Assembly: GCA_963665115.1 (NCBI GenBank)
Contig: OY762007.1
Coordinates: 1,664,001-1,728,000 of the forward strand
DNA from: an uncultured Rivularia sp.
GTDB lineage: Bacteria; Cyanobacteriota; Cyanobacteriia; Cyanobacteriales; Nostocaceae
Direction of reading: 5' to 3'
Length of the DNA stretch: 64,000 bases
This document shows, in pieces, positions 22,536-56,234 of this stretch. Every line of letters begins with the position of its first letter. The first letter of the stretch is position 1. The position numbers were made by a program, and so were the translations under genes. The notes under the pieces were generated by a model. That model ran no database searches and was not told the origin of the DNA. It worked only from the letters and a program-made list of their open reading frames with translations.

Positions 22536-22614
22536 GATGTTTTTAGTTGATTATCTCTAAAATTATCAATTGTAAATAACTAAAGCTAATTAAGATGCTT
22601 GTTGATATTTAGTC

Positions 22615-24333: not shown

Positions 24334-24346
24334 AATATTTTATTTG

Positions 24347-24871
24347 CTAGTAATTGTGATTATCATAATTATCAGAACTCTTAATTTTATAACGTTGAGT
24401 CCACCAAACCAAAGCATCACATAATTGAGTCAATACCATTAAAGCAATGCGTTGTTGTTCGGGTGGCATTGACCAAATTTCTTTCGCCATTGCTTGGATA
24501 TTTCTAGTTTCTTCGCGCTGTTTTTTTTCTTTGATAGCTTTGAGCCTTTTTTTATCATTCTCTTTCTTTTCTGACTCTGTTAAATAATAAGTTACATCAT
24601 CATTTGGTAAAACAACATCAGCATTTTGTAAGATTTCTTCTAGTGTATCCCAGACGGATTTCCAATATTTACCTTTCGCTGGTTTCTCTCTACCAAGTCT
24701 GAGATGTTCTCCCCAAAACCTTTCTAAACCATATGCAACTGACATTCGCATTTTGTGCGATTCATTTAAGATGTCTTTAGCATCTCGATTTTGTAATACT
24801 AAAGTTTGAGCATAATGGTCAAGTTTATAAGGTTGCCAACCTCTTGTTTTGTTTGTTTGTGCTTGTGTCAT
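24347..24871 (-). CDS. cmr5: Cmr5/Cas11-like small helical subunit
   Basis: Positional call (between cmr4 and cmr6); helical, with YGLERFWGE and LVWWTQRYK. Confidence 0.6.
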   Translation of the reverse strand: MTQAQTNKTRGWQPYKLDHYAQTLVLQNRDAKDILNESHKMRMSVAYGLERFWGEHLRLGREKPAKGKYWKSVWDTLEEILQNADVVLPNDDVTYYLTESEKKENDKKRLKAIKEKKQREETRNIQAMAKEIWSMPPEQQRIALMVLTQLCDALVWWTQRYKIKSSDNYDNHNY

Positions 24872-24877
24872 AATTAA

Positions 24878-25729
24878 TTACTGCTGAGTAGATTTTAAAG
24901 TTACTTGAGTACGACCGAATCCGACTGATTCTAAACCGCCAAAATAGAATTCTTGGGTTTCATTCATATTGGAATCATTAATAAATTCTTCCCATTTTAC
25001 TGGCTTCTCATTGAAGGTTTTCCGTAATGCTATAGGAAAAGTCATAATCGTCCCTTCTGGTAAAGCTTCAACATTAAAAAATGCCCCACCTTTAGCTTTT
25101 TTCTGATTGTCTTCAAGCGCAACTCTACTTTGACGATAAAGTGCCATATCGTGAATCATTGAAATCTCTGTATCATCAACTACTAACAGTAAGTAACGTT
25201 CGGCATCACTAATCTCAGAAGGCATATATTCTTTGAGCTTTTCGTCTTTCTTTTCAAGCGGCAAAAATCCCAAATTAAAAAATAAAGTCTTGCTTGAAGT
25301 TTTGCCGTAATAACTATACGGTTCAAAATTATGTGGTGGTTTACCAGTTAATTTTTGATAACGCTTGAGTAAAGTTGGGCAAGAAACTCTTACTACTGGT
25401 TGATTAGGACAATAGACAGGAAGCCACAAAATGGAAGCATACTCAAGCTTGACTATACCTTCAGTAGTGGTATCCTCTTTACCCAGTTTCGCATCTTTTC
25501 CATACCAATATTCAACTGGGCTAAGTCCTTCTCGAACTTGTTCCTCACCCATTGTTTGCAACCGCATATCGCAGCGAAATCTCCCCCGAATCGAACTACC
25601 AGGAATAATCCCTGTTCTAGTAAATTGGTCGCGAAAAATTAAATTAAGATTACCCGTTTCTTCTCCAGCGCTAGCTCCAGTATACAGAGGTGCCAAAGTT
25701 TCAATGATGCCGTAGGCTTTGTGATACAT
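24878..25729 (-). CDS. cmr4: Cmr4 (Cas7-like RAMP)
   Basis: ETLAPLYTGA, IIPGSSIRG, EALPEGT, FGGLESVGFG. Confidence 0.9.
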   Translation of the reverse strand: MYHKAYGIIETLAPLYTGASAGEETGNLNLIFRDQFTRTGIIPGSSIRGRFRCDMRLQTMGEEQVREGLSPVEYWYGKDAKLGKEDTTTEGIVKLEYASILWLPVYCPNQPVVRVSCPTLLKRYQKLTGKPPHNFEPYSYYGKTSSKTLFFNLGFLPLEKKDEKLKEYMPSEISDAERYLLLVVDDTEISMIHDMALYRQSRVALEDNQKKAKGGAFFNVEALPEGTIMTFPIALRKTFNEKPVKWEEFINDSNMNETQEFYFGGLESVGFGRTQVTLKSTQQ

Positions 25730-25772
25730 TTTAGTTGTTAGTTGTTAGTGGTTAGTTGTTATTTATTACTCA

Positions 25773-28614
<2,842 letters not shown>

Positions 28615-29956: not shown

Positions 29957-31403
29957 TTACCAAACAATAAAATCCGAATTATCAAAATCTTGCTCTTCAA
30001 AATCTTGACTTTCAAAATCCGAATTTTGAACGACTTGCTCCGAACTATTCAACCCACAAAAATAACAATCATCCGTCTGTAAATATGTGGTATCAGTTTT
30101 ACGCCATTCGCTATTGGGAAACTCATAAATCCAATCAATACCAGAATCCACATTCATAAAACCGCTTACTATACCGTGAATCACTCCCACAGCGGTACTT
30201 GCACAAATACTATTCAACCAAAATACTGAGGGGGTCATTTACTCCTTCTAAATAACCCGCATTTTCAGCCATATGATTAATTTCTGATGGTGCAGACTCT
30301 AAAGCAGCGCGTTGTAAGTTGATGATGTTACCGCACATTAAACACCAATCACCACCCACAGGAGGAATTGTGATTCTACAGTACATTCGCGGTGTTCCAT
30401 CTGATTTCACGTCGATGTGAGTCCCCAAGCATACCAAAGGACGCATATACTTTAATGCAACTTCTTGAGCAGTTTTGCGAGAAAGATGATTATCAGTAGC
30501 AACTATAATCAAATCGCAATTAGCTATTTCTTGCGTGGCTGTTTCGGCTTCAATAGCAGTCGATATGGTTTTGACATGAGAACCACAAGCGTAAATTTTT
30601 TTAATCAAATGCTTGACATAATGGACTTTGTGCCAATTCTGCTCGACCATTTCTTGAGTTGCACCCGTCATCCGATTTAAGTTGACTTGCTCTAATTTAT
30701 CGGGGTCAACCAGCACCCAATTTTTGACACCCAGACGACCTAATAATTCCGCAAAAATAGAACCAATTCCACCACAACCGATTAATCCTACTTTCAATTG
30801 ATTCAAAGTTTTTTGATTGGTTTCCCCAAATGTTTTTTGACGAGCGAACATTAAATTAGGGTTGTCAAAAATATTTTCAGAATCAGAGATTTCAAATAAT
30901 GAATTACAAAAATCAACCTGCTGAAATTCTCTTCCCTTCCTATCCCATATCCGAAACTTACAATTATCTAAGCCTTCATCAAACACACCCGAAACCAAAC
31001 GGGGTTTTTCAGGGAAATGAGATGCAATAAACTTTGCATATTCTGATTCATAACGGTTATCAACATAAGAAAACTCAGGAATACCCACACCAGCATGAGT
31101 ATGAATATGGACTATATCCAAACCGGGGAATAGATGATTTTCTAACAGATAAGAATGGAAACGTTGAGTTAAAACCAAACCATCGGTAGATTGATGTTCG
31201 TAGCATTCAGAAGTTGGAACAACCCAAGTCTTGGGAATATATCTAACTTTGCGTTTTGAAACCTGATGACGCTGACAAAATAGAAAACCAATTACTTCTT
31301 CGTTGAACATCCGAGAAGAGAGCATCGATTTTTGAAAATCAGACCACATTTTTGGTGGTACATGAAGAGAAAATTTAGTATTCATGGTTAGTTGATGATC
31401 CAC
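29957..31403 (-). CDS. JAB/MPN peptidase - ThiF/E1 fusion (one +1 frameshift near 30232)
   Basis: EEVIGF..HIHTH..FSYVD (JAB); GCGGIGS, VDPD..NLNR, ATDN..SR, CLMC and CYFC (E1). Removing one C gives NDPSVFWLN. Confidence 0.88.
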
Positions 31404-31458
31404 ACCCGACCGGTGAAAGTTGTTAGTTGATAGTTGTTAGTTGATAGTTTAGATTTAT

Positions 31459-31527
31459 GGTGCGTGACGGTAATTTCAAATGATTTTGTTACAAGTGATA
31501 AGTTATCGTAACCGTCACACACCCTAC
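31459..31527. repeat. GTAGGGTG..ACCGTCACGCACC REP-like element (copies 45225-45292, 48140-48210, partial 11918-11932)
   Basis: Shared termini and internal GTGACGG/CCGTCAC inverted repeat; the three full copies abut heptamer arrays. Confidence 0.75.
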
Positions 31528-31569
31528 AAAAATAAATATCCTACTTCTTACTTATTACTTCTTACTTAA

Positions 31570-32055
31570 TTAATCGTCACTATTAATCGCATGACGTGCT
31601 GTTACAAACAATGTCGTGAGATTGTGACCGTTTTCCGCATTATTACTAGGTCGCCAAGAATTCAACCAAACATCGTGATTAAATCCTCCTCCCAATCCGA
31701 CACAATACCAATACCATCCTTGTTCGCTTAAAAATGGGGCACCGTAATAGCTTTGTCTGGTAAAATGATGGTCGCCTTCTCCTACAGTATTCCAAGGATA
31801 ATTTAGATAGCAGCCAATCGGAGGAAGTCGAGGGTAATCTGACGGTAATAGAAACAAAACATCAGTATTGGAAACCTTAAATTTTTGAGAAGATAAAGGC
31901 ATTCCCTTAATCAAAACAGCAGTATATCTAGTATCACCAACAGTCTTGCTACCAACGATTATATTTTTAGCAACTTTTTCTAATAGCTTAAGTTCTTCTA
32001 TAATTCGCGAACTAGGTTTAAATCCCGATTTATCTTTACTAATTGTAATTGCCAT
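31570..32055 (-). CDS. Prokaryotic E2/UBC-like protein
   Basis: VLFLLPSDYPRLPP (UBC-type YP..PP), WYWYC, W.P...NL.T motifs; lies between Ubl and E1. Confidence 0.8.
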   Translation of the reverse strand: MAITISKDKSGFKPSSRIIEELKLLEKVAKNIIVGSKTVGDTRYTAVLIKGMPLSSQKFKVSNTDVLFLLPSDYPRLPPIGCYLNYPWNTVGEGDHHFTRQSYYGAPFLSEQGWYWYCVGLGGGFNHDVWLNSWRPSNNAENGHNLTTLFVTARHAINSDD

Positions 32056-32094
32056 ATCTCACCTCATTACTTCTTACTTTTTACTTCTTACTTT

Positions 32095-32301
32095 TTACTT
32101 TTTACTTCCTTTCACAATCTTCGGTACAGTCCAAACCTTTGAACCTTCCTTCAATGCTTCATTACTTTTCAACGGACGAGTACCACCGAAACCTTCTTCC
32201 ATCACATCATCTTGACCAATTTCTGGTAGTTTTTTTCGTAATTCTTCAACAGTTGCACCTTTGGGTAAATCGACTAATTTACCGTTAACAATTGCTCTCA
32301 T
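32095..32301 (-). CDS. Ubiquitin-like beta-grasp (ThiS/MoaD-fold) protein
   Basis: 68 aa; IVNGK.V.LP.GATV.EL and L.EG.KV..VP..VKG with an SKK tail; AGGA SD upstream. Confidence 0.8.
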   Translation of the reverse strand: MRAIVNGKLVDLPKGATVEELRKKLPEIGQDDVMEEGFGGTRPLKSNEALKEGSKVWTVPKIVKGSKK

Positions 32302-32473
32302 TTAATTTCCTCGCTTTGTTCTAATTATTTGGTTAATGGTAATTTAAAATCTCCCTCAGACTATAAGTCTGGGGCTACAGAAACCAAGTCCACCTGCGTG
32401 GACTATTATTATTTGAAAGATATTTTCTGGTTCCCAGGTTCTACCTGGGAATTAGTGTTTGAAGGCTCTGCCT

Positions 32474-32821
32474 TCAGTCCGCAGAGAATGGTGCAATATA
32501 TGAGTATACTTGTTTTGGAATCTGGCTATTGTCATCTTTTTGTTGATTATTCATACCAGAAATAGACCATACAAAAAGTAACGCAATAATGCTGCCTATC
32601 TTAATAAATGATATTTGTTTTGATTGCTTTGATGTCAATTCTTCAAGAAAACCTATTCGCTGTTCGAGTTTTTGCAAATATTGTAAATTATCTTGACTGC
32701 TAATGTGAGTTAATTGAGATTGTAGATACTCACAACGTCGATTGATATACTCAATATTGTGCGTTATTTCATCAAATTGATTTAGTTTTTGATTGGTTAG
32801 CTTCCCGTTTACTGTTTCCAT
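32474..32821 (-). CDS. Coiled-coil protein with one transmembrane helix
   Basis: Heptad-rich N-terminus, IGSIIALLFVWSISG TM segment, GGAG SD. Confidence 0.6.
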   Translation of the reverse strand: METVNGKLTNQKLNQFDEITHNIEYINRRCEYLQSQLTHISSQDNLQYLQKLEQRIGFLEELTSKQSKQISFIKIGSIIALLFVWSISGMNNQQKDDNSQIPKQVYSYIAPFSAD

Positions 32822-32863
32822 AAATAACTCCCTTGATTTTTTATTTATTTCAACTATGTTTAC

Positions 32864-33439
32864 TCATGCATCAAAAATATTTGCATGACCAATTCGATGA
32901 AAATTCTCATTAGAATTATGTGGGTCAAATTCATCAAATACCTCAGTTAAATCCACCACGCTATTAGCTGAATTCTTTAACTCGCTTCCTAAAGATTGTT
33001 CGACTGAAGCAACCTCAACTCTTATTCCTCTTCTTCTTAATTTTTGTGCTAAATAAGCAAAATCCGAATCACCCGTCACCAAAACCACAATATCTGGTTT
33101 AATTTCTAAAGCTAATTCCATCGCGTCTATTGCCATCACTACATCAACATTATTTTCATAACCATCTCCTTTGGCTTTACCTTCTTTTGTAACAATTAAA
33201 AATCCATTACTCTTAGCCCAATAAATAAATTTTTCTTTGCTTTTTCGCTGCTCTTCAAATCTATCTTTAGCAGGGGGTAGACCAAAATAAATCACCATTT
33301 CGATTAGTTCTCTACCTTCTTTGGGGTCAGCTAAATAATCCCGCATTTTATGCCAGTTTATTCTACGATTAAAGCTTTGTGCTGCCATAAAAGCGTTATC
33401 ACCATCAGCTATAATCATGACTCGATGAAGATTTCTCAT
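32864..33439 (-). CDS. NYN (LabA/DUF88, PIN-like) domain RNase
   Basis: IADGDN, NVDVVMAIDA, LVTGDSDF, S.EL...A motifs. Confidence 0.9.
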   Translation of the reverse strand: MRNLHRVMIIADGDNAFMAAQSFNRRINWHKMRDYLADPKEGRELIEMVIYFGLPPAKDRFEEQRKSKEKFIYWAKSNGFLIVTKEGKAKGDGYENNVDVVMAIDAMELALEIKPDIVVLVTGDSDFAYLAQKLRRRGIRVEVASVEQSLGSELKNSANSVVDLTEVFDEFDPHNSNENFHRIGHANIFDA

Positions 33440-35253: not shown

Positions 35254-35381
35254 GGATGCAACTTGTATTTTCTACACAACGTATTAATCAGGGTTTGAGA
35301 CAATTTTACTGCCATCAACTGCTTCCACCTTACTGTCATCTTCTCGGTAAAGTGACAATTTGTTTAGCTGTTCAGGGACTC

Positions 35382-38300
35382 GTTTCCAACTAATCCGAAT
35401 TAACCCAATCGGTGGGGAAGTAAATTCTTTCTTTAAGGCTGGATTAAAGGAGAGTTTCCAACTAATCCGAATTAACCCAATCGGTGGGGAGTTCTCCAAT
35501 AACATCTAACTGCACTGTATAGTACAGTTTCCAACTAATCCGAATTAACCCAATCGGTGGGGCATACCCAATTAACGGGAATATATTGCCTGAATAAAGT
35601 TTCCAACTAATCCGAATTAACCCAATCGGTGGGGAAACTGTCGCAAGAAATGCTGCTTTTGCTCTTATTGAAAAGTTTCCAACTAATCCGAATTAACCCA
35701 ATCGGTGGGGTTTTGATGGAGACATTGAAATCACTGAAGGATACGAGTGTTTCCAACTAATCCGAATTAACCCAATCGGTGGGGTGGCTAAGTTCAATTC
35801 TATTCGCAGCATCTTTTGTTTCCAACTAATCCGAATTAACCCAATCGGTGGGGTTTTAACATCTAACTAAAAAACAAATTTGCTCGGTTTCCAACTAATC
35901 CGAATTAACCCAATCGGTGGGGAACTTTTTTAACGACAAGAACAACGCTGTTAAGGTTTCCAACTAATCCGAATTAACCCAATCGGTGGGGTATCCCTGC
36001 AAATTTTGTGGGGTGACTACGGACAAAAGTTTCCAACTAATCCGAATTAACCCAATCGGTGGGGTCGTTTCTTAAAGAACGAAAATAATCAAAAGAGAAT
36101 AGTTTCCAACTAATCCGAATTAACCCAATCGGTGGGGATTTCTTAAAAAGAAATCACATACACGCCAATTTATGTTTCCAACTAATCCGAATTAACCCAA
36201 TCGGTGGGGAAGAGAATCATTGAAAAGTTTGAAAATAACGAAAGTTTCCAACTAATCCGAATTAACCCAATCGGTGGGGGAGAATTAATTCTTCCAGCGA
36301 CAGAAATGGAAATGGATCGTTTCCAACTAATCCGAATTAACCCAATCGGTGGGGTAAGAGACAAGAAAGATATAGCGGAAGAAATTAATAAAGTTTCCAA
36401 CTAATCCGAATTAACCCAATCGGTGGGGTGTTCCCAGCAGTTTCAAACCCTAGTCTCTCGTAAAAAGTTTCCAACTAATCCGAATTAACCCAATCGGTGG
36501 GGTAATTTCAATTTTTCTGAGAAGTTAGAATCTGTTAGTTCGTTTCCAACTAATCCGAATTAACCCAATCGGTGGGGGTCGTTCTTCTGTAGGAAGAGGT
36601 ATTCCAGAATATAAAGTTTCCAACTAATCCGAATTAACCCAATCGGTGGGGTCTTTTCAGAAGCCAATAGATGTGATGGAATTCGTAATGTTTCCAACTA
36701 ATCCGAATTAACCCAATCGGTGGGGTGGTGTTCACCGTATGTTTTTAGTAAATAAAGCTAATGTTTCCAACTAATCCGAATTAACCCAATCGGTGGGGTT
36801 TGTTAGAAAAAAGCAGCCACGTGGTTGCTTTAGAGTTTCCAACTAATCCGAATTAACCCAATCGGTGGGGAAATATAATAGCGGTAAAACAGTTCCGAAT
36901 TCTAATGTTTCCAACTAATCCGAATTAACCCAATCGGTGGGGAATATGGTGAAATTTCTTTTACAGAAATTAAAGATAGTTTCCAACTAATCCGAATTAA
37001 CCCAATCGGTGGGGAAAGACAAAAGAGGAAGTCTTAGACTTTCCACCTAACGGTTTCCAACTAATCCGAATTAACCCAATCGGTGGGGGGCTGTTTGAAA
37101 AACAGCATAAGTCGAGGTCAGTTAGAGTTTCCAACTAATCCGAATTAACCCAATCGGTGGGGGGAGTCAGCCACTGAGGCGACTCCGGCAACTATAACGT
37201 TTCCAACTAATCCGAATTAACCCAATCGGTGGGGGCAGCCAGAATCAAAAAGGCAGCAAGTCCGGAGGATAGTTTCCAACTAATCCGAATTAACCCAATC
37301 GGTGGGGTTTTTTTGTTTATCAGTTGCATAGTCTGTATTCATCAGTTTCCAACTAATCCGAATTAACCCAATCGGTGGGGTACAACATTTTGGCAGTATT
37401 TACTACTGCGGCTTTTAGTTTCCAACTAATCCGAATTAACCCAATCGGTGGGGCGAAAGGATAACACGAGTAATATTGTATTATAGGGAAAGTTTCCAAC
37501 TAATCCGAATTAACCCAATCGGTGGGGTAACATTTTCGCTTTTTCCTAACTAGCTAACTTGTTTCCAACTAATCCGAATTAACCCAATCGGTGGGGATCT
37601 GGCGCTCCTGCAAGGACAGGATTAGTCAACATGTTTCCAACTAATCCGAATTAACCCAATCGGTGGGGGCTTTGGTTTTTGCGTCTTTGTTTCTTTCTAT
37701 TTTCGTTTCCAACTAATCCGAATTAACCCAATCGGTGGGGCAGTCAAAATGCGAATTGGAATGCGAACTGGAAAGTTTCCAACTAATCCGAATTAACCCA
37801 ATCGGTGGGAAAAAAATTTGCTAAGTGAATAACGAAAAAAACGAAAACAGTTTCCAACTAATCCGAATTAACCCAATCGGTGGGGGATTGTTTGTTTCAA
37901 TTTTACGAAGGCAAGTACAAGTAAGTTTCCAACTAATCCGAATTAACCCAATCGGTGGGGCACTTATCTTTAAGGATTTGCTAAAATGTCTAACGTTTCC
38001 AACTAATCCGAATTAACCCAATCGGTGGGGAAAAATTTGACGAAGCATTAGAATTAGCAAGAAAGTTTCCAACTAATCCGAATTAACCCAATCGGTGGGG
38101 AAAAAGATTCTGAAAAAGAGGCTCTTGCCTCTTTGAAGTTTCCAACTAATCCGAATTAACCCAATCGGTGGGGCTCACATTTTTCTGTCTTCATTTGATT
38201 AGCTAACGTTTCCAACTAATCCGAATTAACCCAATCGGTGGGGCGGTTTGTATTGATGGAAATTGTGCAGGATTTTAAAGTTTCCAACTAATCCGAATTA

Positions 38301-41300
38301 ACCCAATCGGTGGGGCAGAAGGGGAAAACATTTTCTTCTCTGAAAAAGAGAAAAAGTTTCCAACTAATCCGAATTAACCCAATCGGTGGGGGATCAAAAA
38401 GATTCTGAAAAAGAGGCTCTTGCCTCTTTGAGTTTCCAACTAATCCGAATTAACCCAATCGGTGGGGTTTTTCAATATATTTGTTAAATGCTGGCGGATA
38501 TTTAGGTTTCCAACTAATCCGAATTAACCCAATCGGTGGGGAATTCGTGGAATTGAAGTTTTAAAAAGCTACCGTTTCGTTTCCAACTAATCCGAATTAA
38601 CCCAATCGGTGGGGGTTCCCCGTTGTATTTACAGGAGGATTCACCAAGTTTCCAACTAATCCGAATTAACCCAATCGGTGGGGACAGTATTGAAAAAATC
38701 TCTAAGTCAGATATAAAAGTTTCCAACTAATCCGAATTAACCCAATCGGTGGGGGATAAATGTTTTCAAGATAGGAGGGTATTTCCAACGTTTCCAACTA
38801 ATCCGAATTAACCCAATCGGTGGGGCTGAAGAAAAAAAAGAAGAATGCGAACCTAAGGCACAGTTTCCAACTAATCCGAATTAACCCAATCGGTGGGGCA
38901 ATATTCAAAACATGGGTTTTGGTATTGGACAAAGAAAAAGTTTCCAACTAATCCGAATTAACCCAATCGGTGGGGAAACTGAAGAAGAAGTTGAAACTGA
39001 AGCTGAAGAAGAGTTTCCAACTAATCCGAATTAACCCAATCGGTGGGGCAAGGGGTCGTGATGTTGGCGTGCCTCACACACCTCAAGTTTCCAACTAATC
39101 CGAATTAACCCAATCGGTGGGGATTTCATCTATTTGCTTACTTAAAAGCAATGCATAGTTTCCAACTAATCCGAATTAACCCAATCGGTGGGGATTGGGC
39201 ATGAGAGATAACTGAGAGAACCACCAAGGTTTCCAACTAATCCGAATTAACCCAATCGGTGGGGAAACTTTATCTTTATTTTGGGGAATTCTGCTTTAAA
39301 GTTTCCAACTAATCCGAATTAACCCAATCGGTGGGGTGCAAAACCAGGTCAGCGAGGCTATGAACCTCCCAGTTTCCAACTAATCCGAATTAACCCAATC
39401 GGTGGGGAAAACTAAAAGGGAAGCATATAGTTGGCAGTAAAGTTTCCAACTAATCCGAATTAACCCAATCGGTGGGGAATACGACAATCGTAGGTTTGCA
39501 AACTATGCAGTTTCCAACTAATCCGAATTAACCCAATCGGTGGGGGTGAATTAGAAGCAATGGCTTCCGGTTCATCTGATTTGGTTTCCAACTAATCCGA
39601 ATTAACCCAATCGGTGGGGTCTAATAGTGGAAATGTAAGCATTAGCGGCAATAATAGTTTCCAACTAATCCGAATTAACCCAATCGGTGGGGTAGTGGAA
39701 ACGGAATGAATGTAACGCAAATTAACGTTTCCAACTAATCCGAATTAACCCAATCGGTGGGGCGACGGCTATAGCAGTAAAGTTTCATGGGGTACTTGTG
39801 TTTCCAACTAATCCGAATTAACCCAATCGGTGGGGAAGCACTGAGAACCAGTTCAAAAAGTTTGATACTAATGTTTCCAACTAATCCGAATTAACCCAAT
39901 CGGTGGGGTCCAACAAGATTACATTAATTAACCATGTAACAAAAGTTTCCAACTAATCCGAATTAACCCAATCGGTGGGGTAGATGAAAATAATCTAGCA
40001 CATCTTGCTATAATAATGTTTCCAACTAATCCGAATTAACCCAATCGGTGGGGATGGCACCTTAAGCCTGGTAAATCTGAATATTGGGTGTTTCCAACTA
40101 ATCCGAATTAACCCAATCGGTGGGGTGTTGAACTGGGGAGGTGTGTTGCTGCCAGTAAGGTTTCCAACTAATCCGAATTAACCCAATCGGTGGGGTAGAG
40201 ACGATGTAGTTTATTTTTTAAAGGATTGTTTCCAACTAATCCGAATTAACCCAATCGGTGGGGTTTCCTTTTGGGTAGGTTCTGAAAAGATAACATTCCA
40301 GGTTTCCAACTAATCCGAATTAACCCAATCGGTGGGGATGGGTAAATTAGGACATAGGGAAACCTGTGTTCAAGGTTTCCAACTAATCCGAATTAACCCA
40401 ATCGGTGGGGTGTAAGTAACATTAACTCCTATTAGTTTATTAATGTTTCCAACTAATCCGAATTAACCCAATCGGTGGGGACATGGTTAAAGAAGCTGAC
40501 GGTCGCTGCATGAACGTTTCCAACTAATCCGAATTAACCCAATCGGTGGGGTTGCTCATCATTACGTGAAAAAGTAACGGTGTGATAAGGTTTCCAACTA
40601 ATCCGAATTAACCCAATCGGTGGGGAAAGAGCAAGAGTTACAAGTCATGGTTTATAAGATAAAGTTTCCAACTAATCCGAATTAACCCAATCGGTGGGGG
40701 ATTGAAAGATATAAAGCAAAAAATTGAGTTAGTTGAAAGTTTCCAACTAATCCGAATTAACCCAATCGGTGGGGAAACGGAGCGAAAGTTCCAAAAGTCT
40801 TAGTTACTGGAGTTTCCAACTAATCCGAATTAACCCAATCGGTGGGGGTTCAAAACAGAATTGCGCTTTTTTCTTTGTTTTCGTTTCCAACTAATCCGAA
40901 TTAACCCAATCGGTGGGGAAACAAATTTATCTGAGAGCTACAAACGCATTTGTTTCCAACTAATCCGAATTAACCCAATCGGTGGGGTGGTTTAATTAGT
41001 CTAGCAGTAGCATCCGCACGTAATAGTGTTTCCAACTAATCCGAATTAACCCAATCGGTGGGGAAACAGCCCAAGAGACCTGAAAGACGACCAATAAACG
41101 TTTCCAACTAATCCGAATTAACCCAATCGGTGGGGTTGATGAAAATAAGATGTATAACTGCCAACGGAGTAGTTTCCAACTAATCCGAATTAACCCAATC
41201 GGTGGGGTTTTTATTGCTTCTTTCGTAATTTTCAATCATCAGTTCCGTTTCCAACTAATCCGAATTAACCCAATCGGTGGGGTTATTTTACAGAAAGACG

Positions 41301-41858
41301 GAGTAATCATAATGATTAGTTTCCAACTAATCCGAATTAACCCAATCGGTGGGGGAGAAAACTCTATAATGCTTGCAAAAGCATAATAGGTTTCCAACTA
41401 ATCCGAATTAACCCAATCGGTGGGGAGAGATTATATTTTCAATGGAAAGAAGGTTGGAGAGTTTCCAACTAATCCGAATTAACCCAATCGGTGGGGTTTT
41501 TTATAATAATAAAAACAACTATGGTTGATAAGTTTCCAACTAATCCGAATTAACCCAATCGGTGGGGGGTTCACGCTTCTTCTGCTCGTGCAGAAGAGGG
41601 AAAGTTTCCAACTAATCCGAATTAACCCAATCGGTGGGGCGTCTCTACGCAAATTGGTGTGTAAAATTCTTTAAGTTTCCAACTAATCCGAATTAACCCA
41701 ATCGGTGGGGGTCGCTTCTGTTTTGACTATTGCTCAGGTGAATATTGAAGTTTCCAACTAATCCGAATTAACCCAATCGGTGGGGTGCTAAGTTTTTCTA
41801 TGAAAGCTTAGAAAGCATTAAAGTTTCCAACTAATCCGAATTAACCCAATCGGTGGGG
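35382..41858 (-). CRISPR. CRISPR array, 90 repeats / 89 spacers by manual count; 36 nt repeat CCCCACCGATTGGGTTAATTCGGATTAGTTGGAAAC
   Basis: Near-identical repeats with ~32-41 nt spacers. The GAAAC 3' end and the leader next to cas2 give minus-strand orientation. Confidence 0.99.
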
Positions 41859-42077
41859 AGTTCGTTCAGCAGCCCCTACCCAGTAAGAGTTTCAGCCGCC
41901 AAATCGACACACTCCTGAAAAACAGTATGTATCTCGCGCAAAACTGAACAAAACACAAGCCTCAAACCCTTGCCCTGCAAGCCATCGACACACTCCAACG
42001 AAAGAATAGGCATTTGAGCGATTTGGCGGAGTGTGTCGATTTTCATGTTACCTTTTTCTCCGTAGTGGGGCTAAAAC
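41859..42077 (-). promoter_or_regulatory. CRISPR leader with three ATCGACACACTCC motifs
   Basis: Motif at 41903-41915, 41984-41996 and inverted at 42028-42040. Confidence 0.75.
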
Positions 42078-42353
42078 CTATATGACATAATAGTTTGGTG
42101 GCTCTTGAGGATGTTCGCTACCAATAGTTAACACTCTGGAAACAGCATCTTCAGAAATCCAATAAAATCGCACGTTATCCTCAGATGGCTTGACAATTTT
42201 TTTCGATTTCTCAAAAAGTTGTCGCATTTCATCTAAATTTAAAAAGCATTCAAATACAGAAAATTGTACTCTTTGCCCGTAACCCTCTAAAAAGTTAGAT
42301 AATTTAGTGCGTCTTTTATCATTAGGAATATCATATACAACAACCACTAACAT
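42078..42353 (-). CDS. cas2: Cas2
   Basis: VVVYDIPNDKRR..L..YG.RVQFSVFEC..D.VRFY. Confidence 0.97.
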   Translation of the reverse strand: MLVVVVYDIPNDKRRTKLSNFLEGYGQRVQFSVFECFLNLDEMRQLFEKSKKIVKPSEDNVRFYWISEDAVSRVLTIGSEHPQEPPNYYVI

Positions 42354-42400
42354 CTTCAATACTAAGAATTAATTTGTTACTTAAGTATAAGATGCTTTAC

Positions 42401-42449
42401 AAGTAATAAGTAAGAAGTAAAAAGTAAAAAGTAAGAAGTAAAAAGTAAT
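42401..42449 (+). repeat. Heptamer tandem array (AAGTAAN)x7
   Basis: Read directly; inverted relative to 42892-43036. Confidence 0.9.
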
Positions 42450-42456
42450 AAATTGG

Positions 42457-42828
42457 TTATTTTTGTTTAAGTTTATTAATCGAAGATACTAATACCTTAA
42501 TAATTTCTTCATTTTCTTGTATCATATTGTTGAATTTGGATTTCAGCACTAATTCTGATTTAATCATTATTTTTATCCAATAAAGAGTCTCATTAGCTTC
42601 TTTCAAGGCTATAGAATACTTGTTGATAAAATCTGCGTTTGATTGAGCATACTTAGCTTCCGAACAGTTTGCTCCTATTGATGTTCCACTTCTTAAAAAT
42701 TGCTTAGATAATACCTTACCCGCATCGTCAAAAGGTCTTTTATTTAGTTCGCAATAAGCTTTGATAACTCTGATAGCAAAATTTTCTGTTCTTTCTTGAA
42801 TACTAATATTACCCTTATGATTAACCAT
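42457..42828 (-). CDS. Four helix bundle protein (23S rRNA IVP / Avd-like family)
   Basis: QFLRSGTSIGAN..EA..AQS..DF..K..IALKEA.ET.YW signature. Confidence 0.92.
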   Translation of the reverse strand: MVNHKGNISIQERTENFAIRVIKAYCELNKRPFDDAGKVLSKQFLRSGTSIGANCSEAKYAQSNADFINKYSIALKEANETLYWIKIMIKSELVLKSKFNNMIQENEEIIKVLVSSINKLKQK

Positions 42829-42891
42829 GAATCAAAAATAATGCGACAACTTGTTATTAATCGAAAAACAATAAATAACGTATCAAGTATA

Positions 42892-43036
42892 ACTTCTTAC
42901 TTCTTACTTCTTACTTCTTACTCATTACTTCTTACTTCTTACTTCTTACTTCTTACTTCTTACTTCTTACTCATTACTTCTTACTTCTTACTTCTTACTT
43001 CTTACTCATTACTTCTTACTTCTTACTTCTTACTTC
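42892..43036 (+). repeat. Heptamer tandem array (ACTTCTT)x~20
   Basis: Read directly; begins at the cas1 stop codon. Confidence 0.92.
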
Positions 43037-44159
43037 AGTCTGCTCTTAGGTAAGATTCATAGATAATATCAGATAATAAACAGCGCTTATATCTCCTAAC
43101 TTGTAATTGAATTGCATGTCGATATGTTACTTGAGAAATTAAATCTGGATGAGAAATTTCTTCATTCATGCGATTTTCAAACTGTTTCAGAAAAACTCTT
43201 CTAGCAGTTTGACTTAAATAAACTCCTCCTGTGGTTGCGACGACATCAAAGTCTTTCGGTTTAAATTCACTATTATTAATTACTTTTAAAACCAAACTAT
43301 CAACAATAGGAGAACGAAATTCTTCCATTAAATCAAAAGCTAAATATGTTTTTTGCTTATCACCATAATGAAAATGACCGATATATGGTGAAAGTCCTTC
43401 GGTAATAATAAAGCTGAGTACATTATTAAATAAAAGTGTATAGCCAAAACTCAATAATGAATTTATCTCATCGGTGGGAGGCTGCCGAAATCTCTGAGAA
43501 AAACTAAATTTAGGATTAGTAATTAAATTCCCAAAGGCTGGAAAATATCTAGCAGCAGCAATTCCTTCATAACCGCGCAAAGTATCTAAGTTATCAACAT
43601 AATTCAAAGCATCAATATCTTGATTAATTCCATAGATAGCTTCTTCTACTTTTCCTATTTTGCGTCTGCGATTAAATCGCATCAATAATTGTTTGGAATT
43701 CAATAATTTACCTAAAACAACCGCTCTTGATACGCTAAATCGAAATAAATCATCATTACGTCTTTCTACTTGAACTAATTGATTATCCAGATGAATAGAT
43801 TTTTCGCTCCATAAGTGACCATGATATGTACCAGTTTGACTGAGAAATACCACGGGAATTTGTTCTTTTAAACAAGCTTGAATTACTGGAGTTGATAATT
43901 GAATATTACCGAATACTATAATTTGCTCTACTTCCCGAATCGGAACTTCAAGCTTCGGTTTTTCTGAGACATGAATAATAAACCGCTGATAATCTTTATA
44001 GATATTTGTTCCTTGTTCAATTAAGTATATAGCCGCCATTTCTTGATTCCAAATATTTTTTTGAAAAGGACTATCATCCTCTGCTGTTTGTGGAGGTTTT
44101 TCCGTGATTGTTTCGGCAAAATATGGTTTGTGTAGATAACGTATATTTTCATAACCCAA
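43035..44159 (-). CDS. cas1: Cas1 (frame open back to the A9 tract at 44243)
   Basis: IYLIEQG, LRGYEGIAAARYF, INSLLSFGY, G.FH, DLMEEFR. Confidence 0.97.
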   Translation of the reverse strand: MGYENIRYLHKPYFAETITEKPPQTAEDDSPFQKNIWNQEMAAIYLIEQGTNIYKDYQRFIIHVSEKPKLEVPIREVEQIIVFGNIQLSTPVIQACLKEQIPVVFLSQTGTYHGHLWSEKSIHLDNQLVQVERRNDDLFRFSVSRAVVLGKLLNSKQLLMRFNRRRKIGKVEEAIYGINQDIDALNYVDNLDTLRGYEGIAAARYFPAFGNLITNPKFSFSQRFRQPPTDEINSLLSFGYTLLFNNVLSFIITEGLSPYIGHFHYGDKQKTYLAFDLMEEFRSPIVDSLVLKVINNSEFKPKDFDVVATTGGVYLSQTARRVFLKQFENRMNEEISHPDLISQVTYRHAIQLQVRRYKRCLLSDIIYESYLRAD

Positions 44160-44203
44160 ACCAGCAAAACCGTTAGTTATTGAATTAGAAGCTTCAGCTA
44201 ATT

Positions 44204-45166
44204 CTAAACTGCTTTCTTCTTTCGATATTGGTTGCGATAGACTTTTTTTTTACTAGTTTTTCTAGTTCTCGTTTTCTCGCGATTGTTTTCAATAGCTGAC
44301 CTTAATTTAGCTTTATTTGTATCTACAGGGAAAATTGCATCTTCTAAAAAACCATGACCTAAAAAACGAAAACCGCGTTCAAAGCTAGTAATTTGGGTTT
44401 TCTCGGTATTTATTTCTAACCCCATCGAATCCAATAAATCAATCACTTGCGATTTTGCGATCGCGATTCGTTCTTGACTAGTTGATAAAACCAAAAAATC
44501 ATCAGCATAACGCACGATTTCTAAATCACTAGCGCTAATAATTCCATCAAATTCATGGAGATAAATATTTGCCAAAATTGGAGAAATAACCGCACCTTGA
44601 GGAATACCTTTTTGAGGTAAGATTAGCCCTTCTCTAGTTTCCACACCAACCGAAATCCAAGCTTTAATTAAACATAAAATACCTGGGTGGTCAATATGTA
44701 ACCTTACCTGTTGTAACAAGCGATGATGGTCAATATTATCAAAAAACTTGACGATATCAGCATCCAAAACCCAGACATAACCCATGTCTCGCCAATCGGC
44801 TATTTTCTCTACCGCATTGATATAAGATAAATTAGGACGATAAGCAAAACTTACAGGTGAAAATTTCTCTTCCATTAACGGACTAATTACATTTAATAGA
44901 GCTTGCTGAACAATTCTGTCTCGAATAGTAGGAATTTTTAACTCTCTTTGGGAGCCATTTCTTTTGGGAATAATTACCTGCTTGCAAGGAGAAGGTTGAT
45001 AGCTACCATCAGCAACAGAATTCATTAACTGATAAATGTTAACCGTTTGATTGCTAGCAAAACTACTAATAGTTTCACCATCAACACCCGCACAACCGCG
45101 TTTATCAGCAACCTTTTCCCAAGCACGCTGAAAATTATTAATATCGATAAATAGACTGGAAATCAT
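44204..45166 (-). CDS. CRISPR-associated reverse transcriptase (group II intron-like)
   Basis: IPK..G..R.L.IP.IRDRIVQ, DADIVKFFD, GIPQGAVISP, RYADD, FLG; directly upstream of cas1. Confidence 0.95.
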   Translation of the reverse strand: MISSLFIDINNFQRAWEKVADKRGCAGVDGETISSFASNQTVNIYQLMNSVADGSYQPSPCKQVIIPKRNGSQRELKIPTIRDRIVQQALLNVISPLMEEKFSPVSFAYRPNLSYINAVEKIADWRDMGYVWVLDADIVKFFDNIDHHRLLQQVRLHIDHPGILCLIKAWISVGVETREGLILPQKGIPQGAVISPILANIYLHEFDGIISASDLEIVRYADDFLVLSTSQERIAIAKSQVIDLLDSMGLEINTEKTQITSFERGFRFLGHGFLEDAIFPVDTNKAKLRSAIENNREKTRTRKTSKKKVYRNQYRKKKAV

Positions 45167-45384
45167 GATAAGTAAGAAGTAAGAAGTAAAAAGTAAGAAG
45201 TCAAAAGTAAGAAGTAATAAACTTGTAGGGTGCTGTACTTACGAGATAATTGTCGATTTTGACAATGAATTGTCGTCTTACCGTCACGCACCAATCAGTA
45301 TTTAGAAGTCAAAAGTAAGAGGTAAGAAGTAATTAATAATTGATAATTGTTCACTGCTTACTAATAACTGATAACTGTTCACTG

Positions 45385-45975
45385 TTAACTGTTAACTGAA
45401 AACTGCTCGACAATTCGCTTTAATTCTTGAACCATAAAAGAATCAGCATCAGCTTTCAAAAATAATTGCAATAAAGTCTGGTAGTACCATAATGTTCCTT
45501 CTTTACCACCTTTAAATTTTCCCCAAGTAGATTCACCATTGTTAGATAAATCTCTCAAAATACTGCGAGCGTTATGCAATTTGTCAGCTAGCGATACCTT
45601 ACGAATAGAAGCAGAAGCACCACGCAAATTATCAATATATTGCTGTTTGCGCTGCAACCAAGGAGGTTTTGGTATAGTATTCGTATCGCTGCAACCATCA
45701 ACTATTTCCGCAACTTTTAGTCCAAACATATCAAAAATTACTTCACGAGTTGCTTGTCCTCCTTGGTCTTCTACTGCATCATGTAATAATGCAGCGATAG
45801 CTTCATCTTCATCACCACCATCTTCTAACACCAATGCAGTAACGCTTAAAAGATGACTAATATACGGAATATTGCTTCCCTTCCTTATTTGTTCGCGATG
45901 TAATCTTGAAGCATAAACTAAAGCTTGTTCAAAACGATTTGTTAAAAAATATTTTTGTGTTGTGTTTAAATTCAT
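45385..45975 (-). CDS. HD-domain protein, RelA/SpoT hydrolase (Mesh1/SAH)-like
   Basis: H..Q.RK...PYISH, AALLHDAVED, ADKLHN. Confidence 0.85.
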   Translation of the reverse strand: MNLNTTQKYFLTNRFEQALVYASRLHREQIRKGSNIPYISHLLSVTALVLEDGGDEDEAIAALLHDAVEDQGGQATREVIFDMFGLKVAEIVDGCSDTNTIPKPPWLQRKQQYIDNLRGASASIRKVSLADKLHNARSILRDLSNNGESTWGKFKGGKEGTLWYYQTLLQLFLKADADSFMVQELKRIVEQFSVNS

Positions 45976-46062
45976 ATTATTTAAAGGTCAAAGGTCAAAG
46001 GTTAAAGGTTAAAGGTAAATTAGAAAAGGTAACAAGGAGAAAAATAACTCCTAACTGTTCTC

Positions 46063-47592
46063 TTATATATAAAGCTTATAAGTAGCTTCCATTTCTCTTC
46101 TCATTCTGTCTCTTAAATCCAAAGGAAAAATCACTTCAACATTTGGACACCAAGCTCGTAAACGCATGACAATATTATTGTCGTCAACTCGATAATCAAT
46201 TTTGCAATAAATATCGTATTCGGAACGAGATTGTACTGTAGAAATCAATTGTTTCTGTTCTAAAGATGCTTTTGGTGTGTAAGATTTAATCAGTTTTTCT
46301 ACCTGTTTACGGGTAATTTTATGAAACATATCATCTCTTTCTGTTCCTTCGATATAATTACCGTAAAAATATTGGTCAAATCTTAGTATTAATAATGCTT
46401 GGGGTTTATGAATATCAAATCCCCAAACTGCTGACATTTTATCTTTAATTTCATCTGGATTTGGTGGATATTTACCGTAACATTTATCTAAAAAGTGTTT
46501 GGGTATATCAAGGTTATCTGCATTAGAATCTAATTTATTTAATTCATCTAAATTAATAATTTTATCAAGTCGATAGTCATACCAATCTATTTTACTCCAA
46601 GGATTCTTCCTGTTTGACTGAGGAATTTGACCATAAGCAAATAAATAAGGTGCGCGTTTATAGTAATAAATACAGACTGGATAAACAATACAATCAATTG
46701 TTTCTTGATATAGTTTAGCGCTACGATAGTTTAATTTAACTAATGGTACTTTGTCCCTTTTCCAAAGACTTTTTATTTTCTGCTGCAATAGCTCTATATG
46801 TTCGTTTAAACTTGAATGAACTATATATTCTGCATGAATAAAAAATCTTTGTATACCGTTAATAGGTTGTGAAAGAGAATTATTAAAAGCTGATAATTCA
46901 TGATTTGTGAATTGTTCTGAGGTAATTTCTTTGTTCTTCAGAGAACTTAAGAAAACTTCCGGGAATCGATTTACTTTTGTATATATAACTTTGCCACTAT
47001 ATTTTTTGATATTTAACCAACCTAAATTTACTAAAGATTGAAAATCGTGGTCTTTTAAATTACGAGCAGTAACTGCAAACAAACGTCCTTCTGGTAACGA
47101 TTTGGAAAATTTTTTATTAACAGTTAACGATTTTACTTCTGATTGCATGTGTTGAGATTTATTTTTAGCTATTCCACCTTGGAGTAGATTATTTAGTTCA
47201 TCACCTTCAAAAGAATAATATTTTTTTAGCGATTGACACCAGCGGTTTTCATCAATTCTTAAACTTGATTCAAACAACCATTGCTTTAGTTTAATAGCAC
47301 ATCGACATTCTTCTTTGATAAAATCTTGGTTTAACTCATTTAGGCTATGTAAGCTTGGTATACAATCACGTTTATGATATTTCTTAGCATCAATAAAAAA
47401 TAAATCGCGCCATTCTAAAAAACTAAACTCTTCTTTCAAGTCTAATTTTACTTCATCACTTTCATCCCCATAAATAGAACGTAAGATAACCCATAACCTT
47501 ACAGCTTTTGCTAAATTTTGCTTCAGAGAACCTGCTGTTAATATCTTGAGAACTTCAACACTAGGAGGATAGTTAAAAACTTCTCTCTTCAT
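46063..47592 (-). CDS. CRISPR-associated WYL-domain regulator (TIGR03985-like)
   Basis: VYPVCIYY..RAPYLFAYG, YRLDKI, RLRAW.PNVEV..P..LR. Confidence 0.85.
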   Translation of the reverse strand: MKREVFNYPPSVEVLKILTAGSLKQNLAKAVRLWVILRSIYGDESDEVKLDLKEEFSFLEWRDLFFIDAKKYHKRDCIPSLHSLNELNQDFIKEECRCAIKLKQWLFESSLRIDENRWCQSLKKYYSFEGDELNNLLQGGIAKNKSQHMQSEVKSLTVNKKFSKSLPEGRLFAVTARNLKDHDFQSLVNLGWLNIKKYSGKVIYTKVNRFPEVFLSSLKNKEITSEQFTNHELSAFNNSLSQPINGIQRFFIHAEYIVHSSLNEHIELLQQKIKSLWKRDKVPLVKLNYRSAKLYQETIDCIVYPVCIYYYKRAPYLFAYGQIPQSNRKNPWSKIDWYDYRLDKIINLDELNKLDSNADNLDIPKHFLDKCYGKYPPNPDEIKDKMSAVWGFDIHKPQALLILRFDQYFYGNYIEGTERDDMFHKITRKQVEKLIKSYTPKASLEQKQLISTVQSRSEYDIYCKIDYRVDDNNIVMRLRAWCPNVEVIFPLDLRDRMRREMEATYKLYI

Positions 47593-53792: not shown

Positions 53793-55230
53793 GGAAAGAG
53801 ATTGCGGTAAACAAAGGGTGTTGTAACTGTCAGCAGTTATTACCATTAAAAATTATACACCGCAATATCTTGGTCTAACTTTATACTTTTTCAATGATTT
53901 ATTTAAGTGGATATAGAAATAAAACATACACCTTGAAATAATAGTACGCAATTACTAAATTGTTGACAATAATTACTTCCGAAATCGCAAAGATTTAGTA
54001 TAATATTTGCGCCATCTTCCAAAAAGCAATGTAAGCGCGCATATCAAGTTAACCCACAACAAATAAACGCTACTCCCAACTCCGAATCAATCATGGGAGT
54101 GGTTGAACGCTTGACCTATCACTCCGAAGAGTCGGGTTATACGGTAGCGCGGTTACAGCGTCCAAGGGTATCGGAATTAACTACCATTACGGGCAGCTTT
54201 GCAGGTATTCAGCCCGGACAAACGCTTCAACTTAATGGTTTCTGGCGCGAACATCCCTGCGGACGGTTTGCAATTTCAAGTTACCAACTACAAGGAAACT
54301 AAACCAGCAACAATCACGGGAATCGAAAAGTATTTAGGTAGCGGATTAATTAAAGGAGTTGGTCCGGTAACAGCAAAACGTATCGTTGCTCATTTCGGTA
54401 CAGAAACTCTCGATATTATTGACAATCAAATCGAGCGATTGCAAGAAGTGAATGGCATTGCGAAGAAACGTATTGCCATGATTCAGAAAGCTTGGAAGGA
54501 GCAACGAGCCATAAAAGAAGTGATGGTATTTCTTCAAAGTCATGGTGTCTCAACAACCTACGCGGTGAAGATTTACAAACATTACGGTGATTTGGCAATC
54601 AATAAAGTTAACGAAAATCCTTACCAGCTAGCAACCGATATTTATGGAATTGGGTTTCTCACTGCTGATAAAATTGCTCGTAATTTGGGGGTTCCTCCAG
54701 ATTCGGAATTTAGATATAAAGCTGGTATTATCCACGTTTTAAGCGAAGCAGCAGATTCAGGACATTGTTATTTACCGCAACCGGAGTTAATACAACAGCT
54801 TTGTGAAAAACTAAAAACTGACGAACATCAACCACAAGAGGATGGATTAACAAAAGTCATCAGCGATATGTCTCTCAGCGATGAATTAATTAGAGAACGT
54901 GATGCTGATAAAGTATTACTCTGCTACAAACCAACCTTCTTCCATACCGAACAAAACCTAGCGCAACTTATACTTTCTCGTTTGCATCAAACGATAAATA
55001 CAGATATACCTCGCGTTCATAATTGGTTGGAGCGTTTTAGCCAAAGCCGTAAAGTTTCATTATCAACGGAACAGCTACAAGCAGTTGAAACCGCAGCTTA
55101 CTCAAAAATCATGGTAATCACTGGTGGTCCCGGTGTCGGTAAAACGTTTTGTACCCGGACTATTGTTTCATTATGGAAAGCGATGGGTAAATCAATCGCT
55201 CTAGCTGCACCAACTGGACGAGCTGCACAG

Positions 55231-55719
55231 AATAATTCGTAATTCGTAATTCGTAATTCGTAATTAATTAAGATTACATTTAAAAACTGAATATGAGATA
55301 ATTATTAATAGTTAATTGACATTATAAAGATGATTCATAATATTAGTATAACTGACAGAACTAAAAAGTTTGCAGTTAGAATTATAAAAGCTTGTTGCTT
55401 CCTAGATGAAAAACCAGGAGTTAATCGAATAATATCAAGCCAATTACTTCGTTCTGGAACATCTATTGGTGCTAATGTTCGAGAAGCACAATCGGCACAG
55501 TCTGATAAAGATTTTCTTAGTAAACTAGAAATCGCATTGAAAGAAGCAAGGGAAACTCAGTACTGGTTGGAAATTATAATTGAATCTGAGTTAGTAGAGA
55601 AATCTAAGTTTGATTCTTTACTTCAAGAAGCTAATGAAATTGGCAAGATATTAGTTTCTTCTACTAAAAAACTTAAACAGAAATAATTACGAATTACGAA
55701 TTACGAATTACGAATTATT
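55231..55719 (+). mobile_element. Four-helix-bundle cassette with perfect heptamer-array inverted ends
   Basis: 55231-55266 is the exact reverse complement of 55684-55719. Confidence 0.75.
55330..55686 (+). CDS. Four helix bundle protein (IVP/Avd-like), second paralog
   Basis: QLLRSGTSIGANVREAQSAQS..DF..K..IALKEARET.YW. Confidence 0.92.
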   Translation: MIHNISITDRTKKFAVRIIKACCFLDEKPGVNRIISSQLLRSGTSIGANVREAQSAQSDKDFLSKLEIALKEARETQYWLEIIIESELVEKSKFDSLLQEANEIGKILVSSTKKLKQK

Positions 55720-56234
55720 TTGGTATGCTTGATTTATTTTTGGCATATTCATTATTTGAAGCGGTAGCGGATGATACGCAACTTCTCCTTGTTGGGGATA
55801 TAGATCAGCTGCCGTCAGTCGGTGCTGGTAACGTTTTGGCAGATTTAATTCATTCGGGTAAAGTTCCGGTAGTACGGCTCACCCAAGTCTTTCGTCAAGC
55901 TGCAAGTAGTAAAATTATTACCGCATCTCACCAAATAAATCGCGGACAATATCCTTTGATTGAAACAATTTCCGATACCCCCGAATCGGATTGTTTGTGG
56001 CATGGAGGAGGTTTTCAGCCGGAGCATGGGGTACAAGCAATTAGCGAGTTAATCACAGATTTAATTCCCAGACTTGGTTTTAATCCTGTGACTGATGTAC
56101 AAGTACTCGCACCAATGACGAGAGGTTTGGTTGGTACGCGCAATCTTAACAACGTACTGCAAAAACTCATTAATCCTCCTAGTCCCCAGAAGATAGAAGT
56201 AACAAGGGGTGGGATAATTTTTCGAGTTGGCGAT

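Follow-up and report, generated by a model that had tools for sequence, protein, structure and literature searches.

Tandem heptamer arrays are a feature of filamentous cyanobacteria, and we take them to be the sequences known as STRR; the PF05635 protein family, although structures have been solved for it, has to our knowledge no known function outside DGRs. According to the available portion of PMC4990558, an intervening sequence (IVS) of the 23S rRNA of Coxiella burnetii bears an ORF for a protein, S23p, which by name and Pfam description belongs to this same family, and further ORF-bearing 23S IVSs are cited there from Leptospira. Genes of the family, called IVP, have also been recorded in CRISPR loci, where the accessible part of PMC3936711 counts 18 of them, spread over all three types; neither that text nor the corresponding part of PMC10910872 mentions repeat arms or mobility. 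Cyanobacterial heptamer arrays lying before start codons, and convergent pairs of arrays, are described in PMC4692102 and PMC4679880, whose available text links them to no gene family and gives no mechanism for their spread; nor did the literature covered offer an origin for these arrays. The available parts of PMC2700814, PMC5513706 and PMC8700078 contain nothing on arms of the kind considered here.

In this study we analysed a stretch of 64,000 nucleotides (the window) from the genome of an uncultured Rivularia sp. (8.69 Mb, 37.9% GC; genome G000), in which a PF05635 gene enclosed by inverted heptamer arrays is found between cas1 and cas2. Quite probably this insert is a mobile cassette and not a component of the CRISPR system. 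It seems to us probable, with less assurance, that the gene, its leader and the two arms constitute a discrete cassette which is present or absent as a unit, is likely selfish and moves by replacement at its arms.

The cassette and its operon

On the minus strand, a TIGR03985 gene, an HD gene, a reverse transcriptase (RT), cas1, the four-helix gene and cas2 follow one another and lead into a CRISPR array. Read along the mRNA, the RT (45166-44204) and cas1 (44159-43035) are followed by a first array (43036-42892), a 63-nt leader, the ORF (42828-42457), a second array (42448-42401) and cas2. The features are as follows.

35381..41858, no strand assigned: CRISPR array downstream of cas2, 90 repeats
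42078..42359, minus strand: cas2, host gene downstream (PF09827, TIGR01573; in-frame ATG at 42353)
42401..42448, minus strand: right arm, 6.9 units, C/U-rich, reverse complement of the left arm
42457..42828, minus strand: four-helix-bundle gene, 123 aa, pI 9.5 (PF05635 / TIGR02436)
42829..42891, minus strand: AT-rich leader, 63 nt, which travels with the gene and is kept in G158 at the same site
42892..43036, minus strand: left arm, 20.7 units of AAGTAAG, G-rich on the mRNA (TRF score 248)
43035..44159, minus strand: cas1, host gene upstream (PF01867, TIGR00287)
44204..45166, minus strand: stand-alone RT of the adaptation operon (PF00078; YADD at 220-223)
45170..45217, minus strand: lone array of the right-arm type, same heptamer, just before the RT start
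55229..55722, plus strand: second cassette with TAATTCG arms and a PF05635 gene (55330-55686), replacing 134 nt of recD2

The original prediction, of a four-helix gene placed between cas1 and cas2 within inverted heptamer arrays, was confirmed (20.7 and 6.9 units), and its statements that the recD2 cassette has another heptamer (arms 55233-55265 and 55685-55717) and that the arrays around the E2 gene are direct also hold. Three AATGAGT variants occur among the AAGTAAG units of the left arm (42892-43036), whose first bases are contained in the cas1 stop codon; this stop is TGA in both full alleles known (G000 and G158), as against TAG or TAA in most relatives. The right arm ends 41 nt from the TTG of cas2. 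A related leader also precedes relatives of the cassette gene at other sites, and the lone array at 45170-45217, overlooked in the original prediction, is shared with relatives that have no cassette. The RT, whose neighbours are the HD gene, cas1 and cas2, scored 296 bits against TIGR04416, slightly below the cut-off of 300.

None of the 89 spacers of the array at 35381-41858 matches the rest of the genome over at least 24 nt, a result that is uninformative on RNA-derived acquisition. A promoter and terminator scan of 41850-46100 remained at chance level, and there was no Rfam match within 41800-46200. Elsewhere in the window, a type III-B-like effector block extends over 21402-28575; its cmr2/cas10 is split over two overlapping ORFs (27907-28575 and 26871-27938) and is therefore frameshifted or mis-assembled. 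ThiF-family, Prok-E2 and NYN genes (30210-33439) lie between this block and the CRISPR array.

In profile searches the 123-aa ORF scored 73.8 bits against PF05635 (cut-off 33.8) and 92.2 bits against TIGR02436 (cut-off 24). The single-sequence fold was poor (pLDDT 64.8), and an alignment-based model was used instead, which displayed four helices at a pLDDT of 92.9. The nearest solved relatives are 2RLD (TM 0.78-0.83, 45% identity) and 2GSC (TM 0.73-0.78), each with five chains, and not the Bordetella Avd (4DWL; TM 0.71, E 0.07, 15% identity). By analogy with these solved relatives and, as to the pentamer, from the title under which the accessible part of PMC10053308 cites Lin et al. 2006, we infer that the cassette protein is a pentameric nucleic-acid binder. 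Profile and structure searches gave no match to a nuclease family or to a RAYT-type protein.

Alleles at the slot and relatives at other sites

In searches covering 151 genomes of the family, 27 of the genus and 401 of the phylum, 46 cas1 loci were obtained. The slot was examined in 43 cas1-cas2 spans from 41 genomes, 40 of them with an RT upstream; three loci from which cas2 is missing (L015, L016 and L038, none with the gene), three fusions of about 40% identity (L040-L042) and three paralogous hits without a locus were left out of the count. The gene is present in 2 of the 43 spans, those of the window and of G158, so that the check proposed on orthologous RT-cas1-cas2 operons points to a sporadic presence.

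The slot exists in full, arms-only, arm-less and other-heptamer hairpin versions. The two full alleles encode proteins that are 93% identical (dN/dS 0.11), and differ in arm length, the left arm of G158 having about 6 units, and in their right junctions. The G158 cassette begins at the cas1 stop, ends 13 nt short of cas2 and stands in place of the spacer found in G153, G155 and G163. Hairpins consisting of arms only, with the same heptamer, occur in G157, in one G161 copy and in sequencing run X4 from a close strain, where, in a 2867-nt contig, 31 other letters stand between 42412 and 43042 in place of 42413-43041; short joints with 30 letters on either side, seen in X1 and X3, could derive from other repeat copies and were not counted. 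Arm-less spacers are found in G141, G153, G155 and G163, among others. At the same slot, G070 (locus L025) has a gene-less inverted pair of TAACTGA-type arrays. An arms-only allele could be a landing pad, or else what a deletion has left behind.

On the rpoB tree the carriers G000 and G158 do not pair as sisters; the sister of G000 is G163, whose slot is empty. As cas1 is 96% identical among scattered members, the cas locus itself probably moves between strains; none of the ten branches of the cas1 tree is well supported, and the tree does not resolve the order of the alleles. A stop-broken, internally deleted copy of the cassette with the same arms was found in G153 between the TIGR03985 and HD genes (L261:1434-1697), overlapping the stop of the former, and it is missing there in seven other genomes. 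At this second slot the window has an unrelated AAAGGTC array (45983-46016).

The cassette occurs at unrelated sites, in flipped orientation and in full, internally deleted and arms-only form, and purifying selection acts on its ORF. By their flanks, the 18 clade members tested sort into 12 groups (three members having a short or missing flank), and within 1.5 kb of the gene's closest relatives there is neither an RT nor a cas gene. The pairs L088/L091 and L105/L107 each have the cassette at the same site in both orientations. Comparison with the window's gene gave dN/dS values of 0.08-0.23 in 14 of 17 cases, the other three being saturated, and the median over 66 pairs was 0.15; such purifying selection fits a host-useful gene equally well. 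Three of the 11 family loci in this genome are broken.

The fully inverted-armed design was found in 49 of the 54 fully flanked loci from the genus and the family. For the second clade, among the best 80 of 503, it was found in 44 of the 50 cyanobacterial loci and 18 of the 24 others. The named relatives of the second four-helix protein of the window are from Rivularia, Nostoc and Calothrix, which points to a heterocyst-forming cyanobacterium. Across genera the heptamer of the arms tracks the protein clade and the two arms change together, with an AGTA-type arm in 19 of 20 rows of the window's clade and AATTCGT in all seven rows of its sister clade; the match is not one-to-one, AGTAGGG also flanking a clade of about 20% identity. 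In two close relatives (L086 and L093) one arm is missing and apparent insertion-sequence DNA takes its place. Within the AATTCG clade (L141-L195), five repeat cores are the commonest arm length (20 of 40 on the left, 17 of 40 on the right), a number equal to that of the subunits in the solved relatives; this is not so in the cassette under study.

The recD2 cassette lies 12 kb from the one between cas1 and cas2. It is present with near-constant ends in four genomes (the window's, G153, G157 and G158; loci L112, L123 and L124) at four different pairs of target junctions; the stretch replaced measures 134 nt in the window and about 1.5-1.6 kb in each of G157 and G158. Run X4 also holds it arm to arm (26 differences in 447 nt), recD2 being uncovered there and no contig running across. 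The argument from these junctions is weakened by recD2 having lost DNA without any cassette in three genomes (G151, G160 and G170), and the variable junctions may be ordinary decay. At the junctions read there is no target-site duplication, and the filled sites have lost spacer or coding DNA.

Arms, mobility and alternative explanations

Given the 2261 heptamer arrays of the genome, control ORFs were needed for judging the geometry of the arms. Inverted flanks scoring at least 16 enclose 10 of the 11 PF05635 loci (this cassette scoring 36), compared with 19 of 1251 size-matched control ORFs, a mechanical set that includes six of the 11 family loci, the others having been scored from profile coordinates. 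Of the suggestion that the inverted geometry is selected, for mobility in one of its two branches, this much is supported: the geometry is not due to chance, and it goes with mobility. Around ordinary genes (5229 ORFs) G-rich arrays prevail after the stop (609 vs 211) and C-rich arrays before the start (323 vs 89). The arms of the four-helix genes have the opposite polarity, which is what insertion into the loop of a hairpin between genes would be expected to produce.

Of the inverted pairs whose arrays are no more than 600 nt apart, 107 have the G-rich array first and 18 the opposite order, and 117 hairpin loops were delimited in the genome, five with a family gene. The other 112 contain no gene remnant above control level (best E 0.34, vs 0.3 in reversed controls), and the view of gene-less hairpins as deletion derivatives in which the gene can still be recognised was therefore rejected. 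For several of the array types most abundant in G000 there is a resident four-helix gene with arms of that type; for AAAGGTT and the AAAATC type there is none.

As a whole, we hold the following account to be somewhat better than an even bet: a recent gain at this site, replacement of DNA at the arms and a pentameric protein likely binding its own heptamer. The cassette would have been gained recently between cas1 and cas2, its arms acting on DNA, either through recombination with resident heptamer arrays or through joins over a few matching bases. The incoming cassette, encoding no transposase, would take the place of resident DNA at its arms, and the protein would be kept because it helps the cassette to spread, likely through binding to the heptamer type of its own arms. 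The PF05635 gene is the sole ORF of the cassette, in which we found no transposase or recombinase. The evidence for movement is a comparison of alleles, no movement event having been observed.

The other branch of the prediction, excision at the RNA level, would make the cassette an intervening sequence of the mRNA, with the stem selected as an RNase III site at which the gene is cut out of the transcript; the cut would separate RT-cas1 from cas2 and tune their levels. We regard both parts of this explanation as unlikely. The arms are 86-92% complementary over 48-54 nt in several registers, and the folding check agrees with the predicted pairing over about 49 nt: a 701-nt RNA folds with z = -6.5, none of 20 shuffles being equally good, into a predicted stem of 52 pairs (38 AU, 9 GC and 5 GU) with a pairing probability of at least 0.9 across most of the right arm. 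When the whole transcript of 3153 nt is folded, the left arm pairs both with the cas2-side arm (53 nt) and with the RT-side arm (46 nt). The stem and this double pairing can be read in favour of excision, as can the Coxiella IVS, where, according to the available text of PMC4990558, a protein of the same family, heptamer repeats at the 5' end and an RNase III cut in the stem come together. If the left arm engaged both partners at once, as it can in silico, RT-cas1 would also be looped out, and the pairing would lie 3 nt from the RT start. Excision is opposed by the mismatches between arms, which over 110 loci are as often G-U as A-C on the gene's strand (64 vs 68; by locus 23 vs 26); although the test is rough, since these loci are related, the lack of a G-U excess gives no sign of selection on the sense RNA and favours a DNA-level or strand-blind role. 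It is opposed as well by cassettes that lie flipped at one site, or inside recD2, which they break, by the absence of the arms from most orthologous operons, and by the RT-side arm standing without a left arm in G153, G155, G157 and G161. The stem may nevertheless be cleaved by RNase III, as in the Coxiella IVS; such a cut would in our view be a side effect tolerated by the operon.

A role of the protein as an Avd-like cofactor of the CRISPR RT in RNA spacer acquisition, the second idea of the original prediction, fared worse, and we consider it very improbable. The protein is basic, shares the fold of the Bordetella Avd (TM 0.71, E 0.07, 15% identity), which according to the accessible part of bioRxiv 2023.10.23.563531 forms a ribonucleoprotein with its RT, and is encoded in the same orientation within the RT operon; moreover, a module listed as '23S rRNA IVP + DUF2325 + RT sometimes' appears in the available portion of PMC10910872. 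Against this, the gene is missing from 41 of the 43 orthologous spans, G141 has an empty slot and yet an array of at least 65 repeats, DUF2325 was not matched among the six genes scanned here, and 2RLD (45%) and 2GSC are closer solved relatives than Avd. Of the 11 family loci in this genome, one adjoins an RT and the other 10 lie at least 10 kb from any of its five RT ORFs, and RT-cas1 and a close family member co-occur in three genomes where about 3.5 would be expected (9 and 10 of 26). An RT-cofactor role in trans is possible, as family members are present in every one of the 27 genus genomes (3 to 12 matches each). The same abundance, together with dN/dS near 0.1, the 107 vs 18 G-rich-first array pairs and the record of family genes from all three types of cas locus (PMC3936711, available part), would suit a gene that is useful to the host, for instance for defence or the handling of RNA, and is spread through ordinary horizontal transfer, with the arms as passive landing pads. 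This too we find improbable, because other small genes seldom lie within such arms (19 of 1251), the arm type tracks the protein clade across genera with both arms changing together, and turnover and decay are rapid.

An extension of the mobile-cassette account, which we put forward as doubtful, is that PF05635 proteins mobilise heptamer arrays in general: the pentamer of each clade would read about five units of its own type and, as Avd does, make use in trans of an RT, or of a repair pathway, belonging to the host. Equally doubtful is its counterpart, that arm-bounded hairpins would be copied to new sites and the thousands of arrays would be their gene-less offspring. The hints are the clade-heptamer match, the five-core arms and the presence of the matching gene in 5 of the 6 genomes where AGTAA-type arrays abound vs 1 of the 21 others, an association not significant on independent pairs (4:0:1, p 0.125), with thresholds (300 matches, 70% identity) picked after seeing the data and cassette arms adding to the counts. 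G162 is a counter-example, and the direction of causation could be either. With the second heptamer, the raw p is 0.014, the independent pairs are mostly ties and the richest genome, G151, has no matching gene.

Comparison with known systems

The finding is a minor one for CRISPR biology. A cassette that links the PF05635 family with heptamer arrays and moves without a transposase would, if true, explain both, as well as the recurrence of PF05635 genes in cas loci though they are not Cas proteins. The locus offers an allele series (full, deleted, arms-only and arm-less) in close strains, together with mapped junctions, which makes the mobility testable.

The arms of the cassette are the tandem heptamer arrays of filamentous cyanobacteria of which PMC4692102 and PMC4679880 give an account in their accessible parts. 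With insertion sequences and MITEs the cassette shares terminal inverted repeats, unrelated sites and deleted derivatives; unlike them, it has no transposase and no target-site duplication, and target DNA is lost. It resembles REPIN-RAYT, as presented in the available text of PMC3116915, in that a gene is tied to one repeat type and gene-less hairpins are scattered between genes. The RAYT of that system is a tyrosine transposase, whereas the cassette protein is an all-helical bundle matching no nuclease family; the repeats here are tandem heptamers rather than palindromic REPs, and filled sites have lost target DNA. The DGR protein Avd (4DWL; accessible parts of PMC10053308 and bioRxiv 2023.10.23.563531) is comparable in fold (TM 0.71), in basic charge and, here, in having an RT as neighbour. 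It differs in sequence (15% identity), and the RT of the window best matches a group II-like model and sits with cas1, the link to an RT not being conserved. As in the IVP genes of CRISPR loci (available text of PMC3936711 and PMC10910872), a family gene lies within a cas operon; unlike the module of PMC10910872, as far as its accessible part describes it, there is no DUF2325 among the six genes scanned and the presence is sporadic.

In the literature covered, which lay largely outside the subscription journals, we found no heptamer-armed PF05635 cassette outside rRNA. The ORF-bearing 23S IVS, in the portion of PMC4990558 available, resembles the cassette in that its ORF occupies the loop closed by a terminal stem and heptamer repeats lie in the stem region; a sporadic distribution and horizontal movement are further shared features. 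The cassette differs from it in lying between protein genes and not in rRNA, with arms of 7 and 21 units, in having copies at many unrelated sites, flipped and inside recD2, and in that RNase III cutting is here putative. Judged from its sequence, the cassette appears to be an undescribed version of the ORF-bearing IVS design, set outside rRNA.
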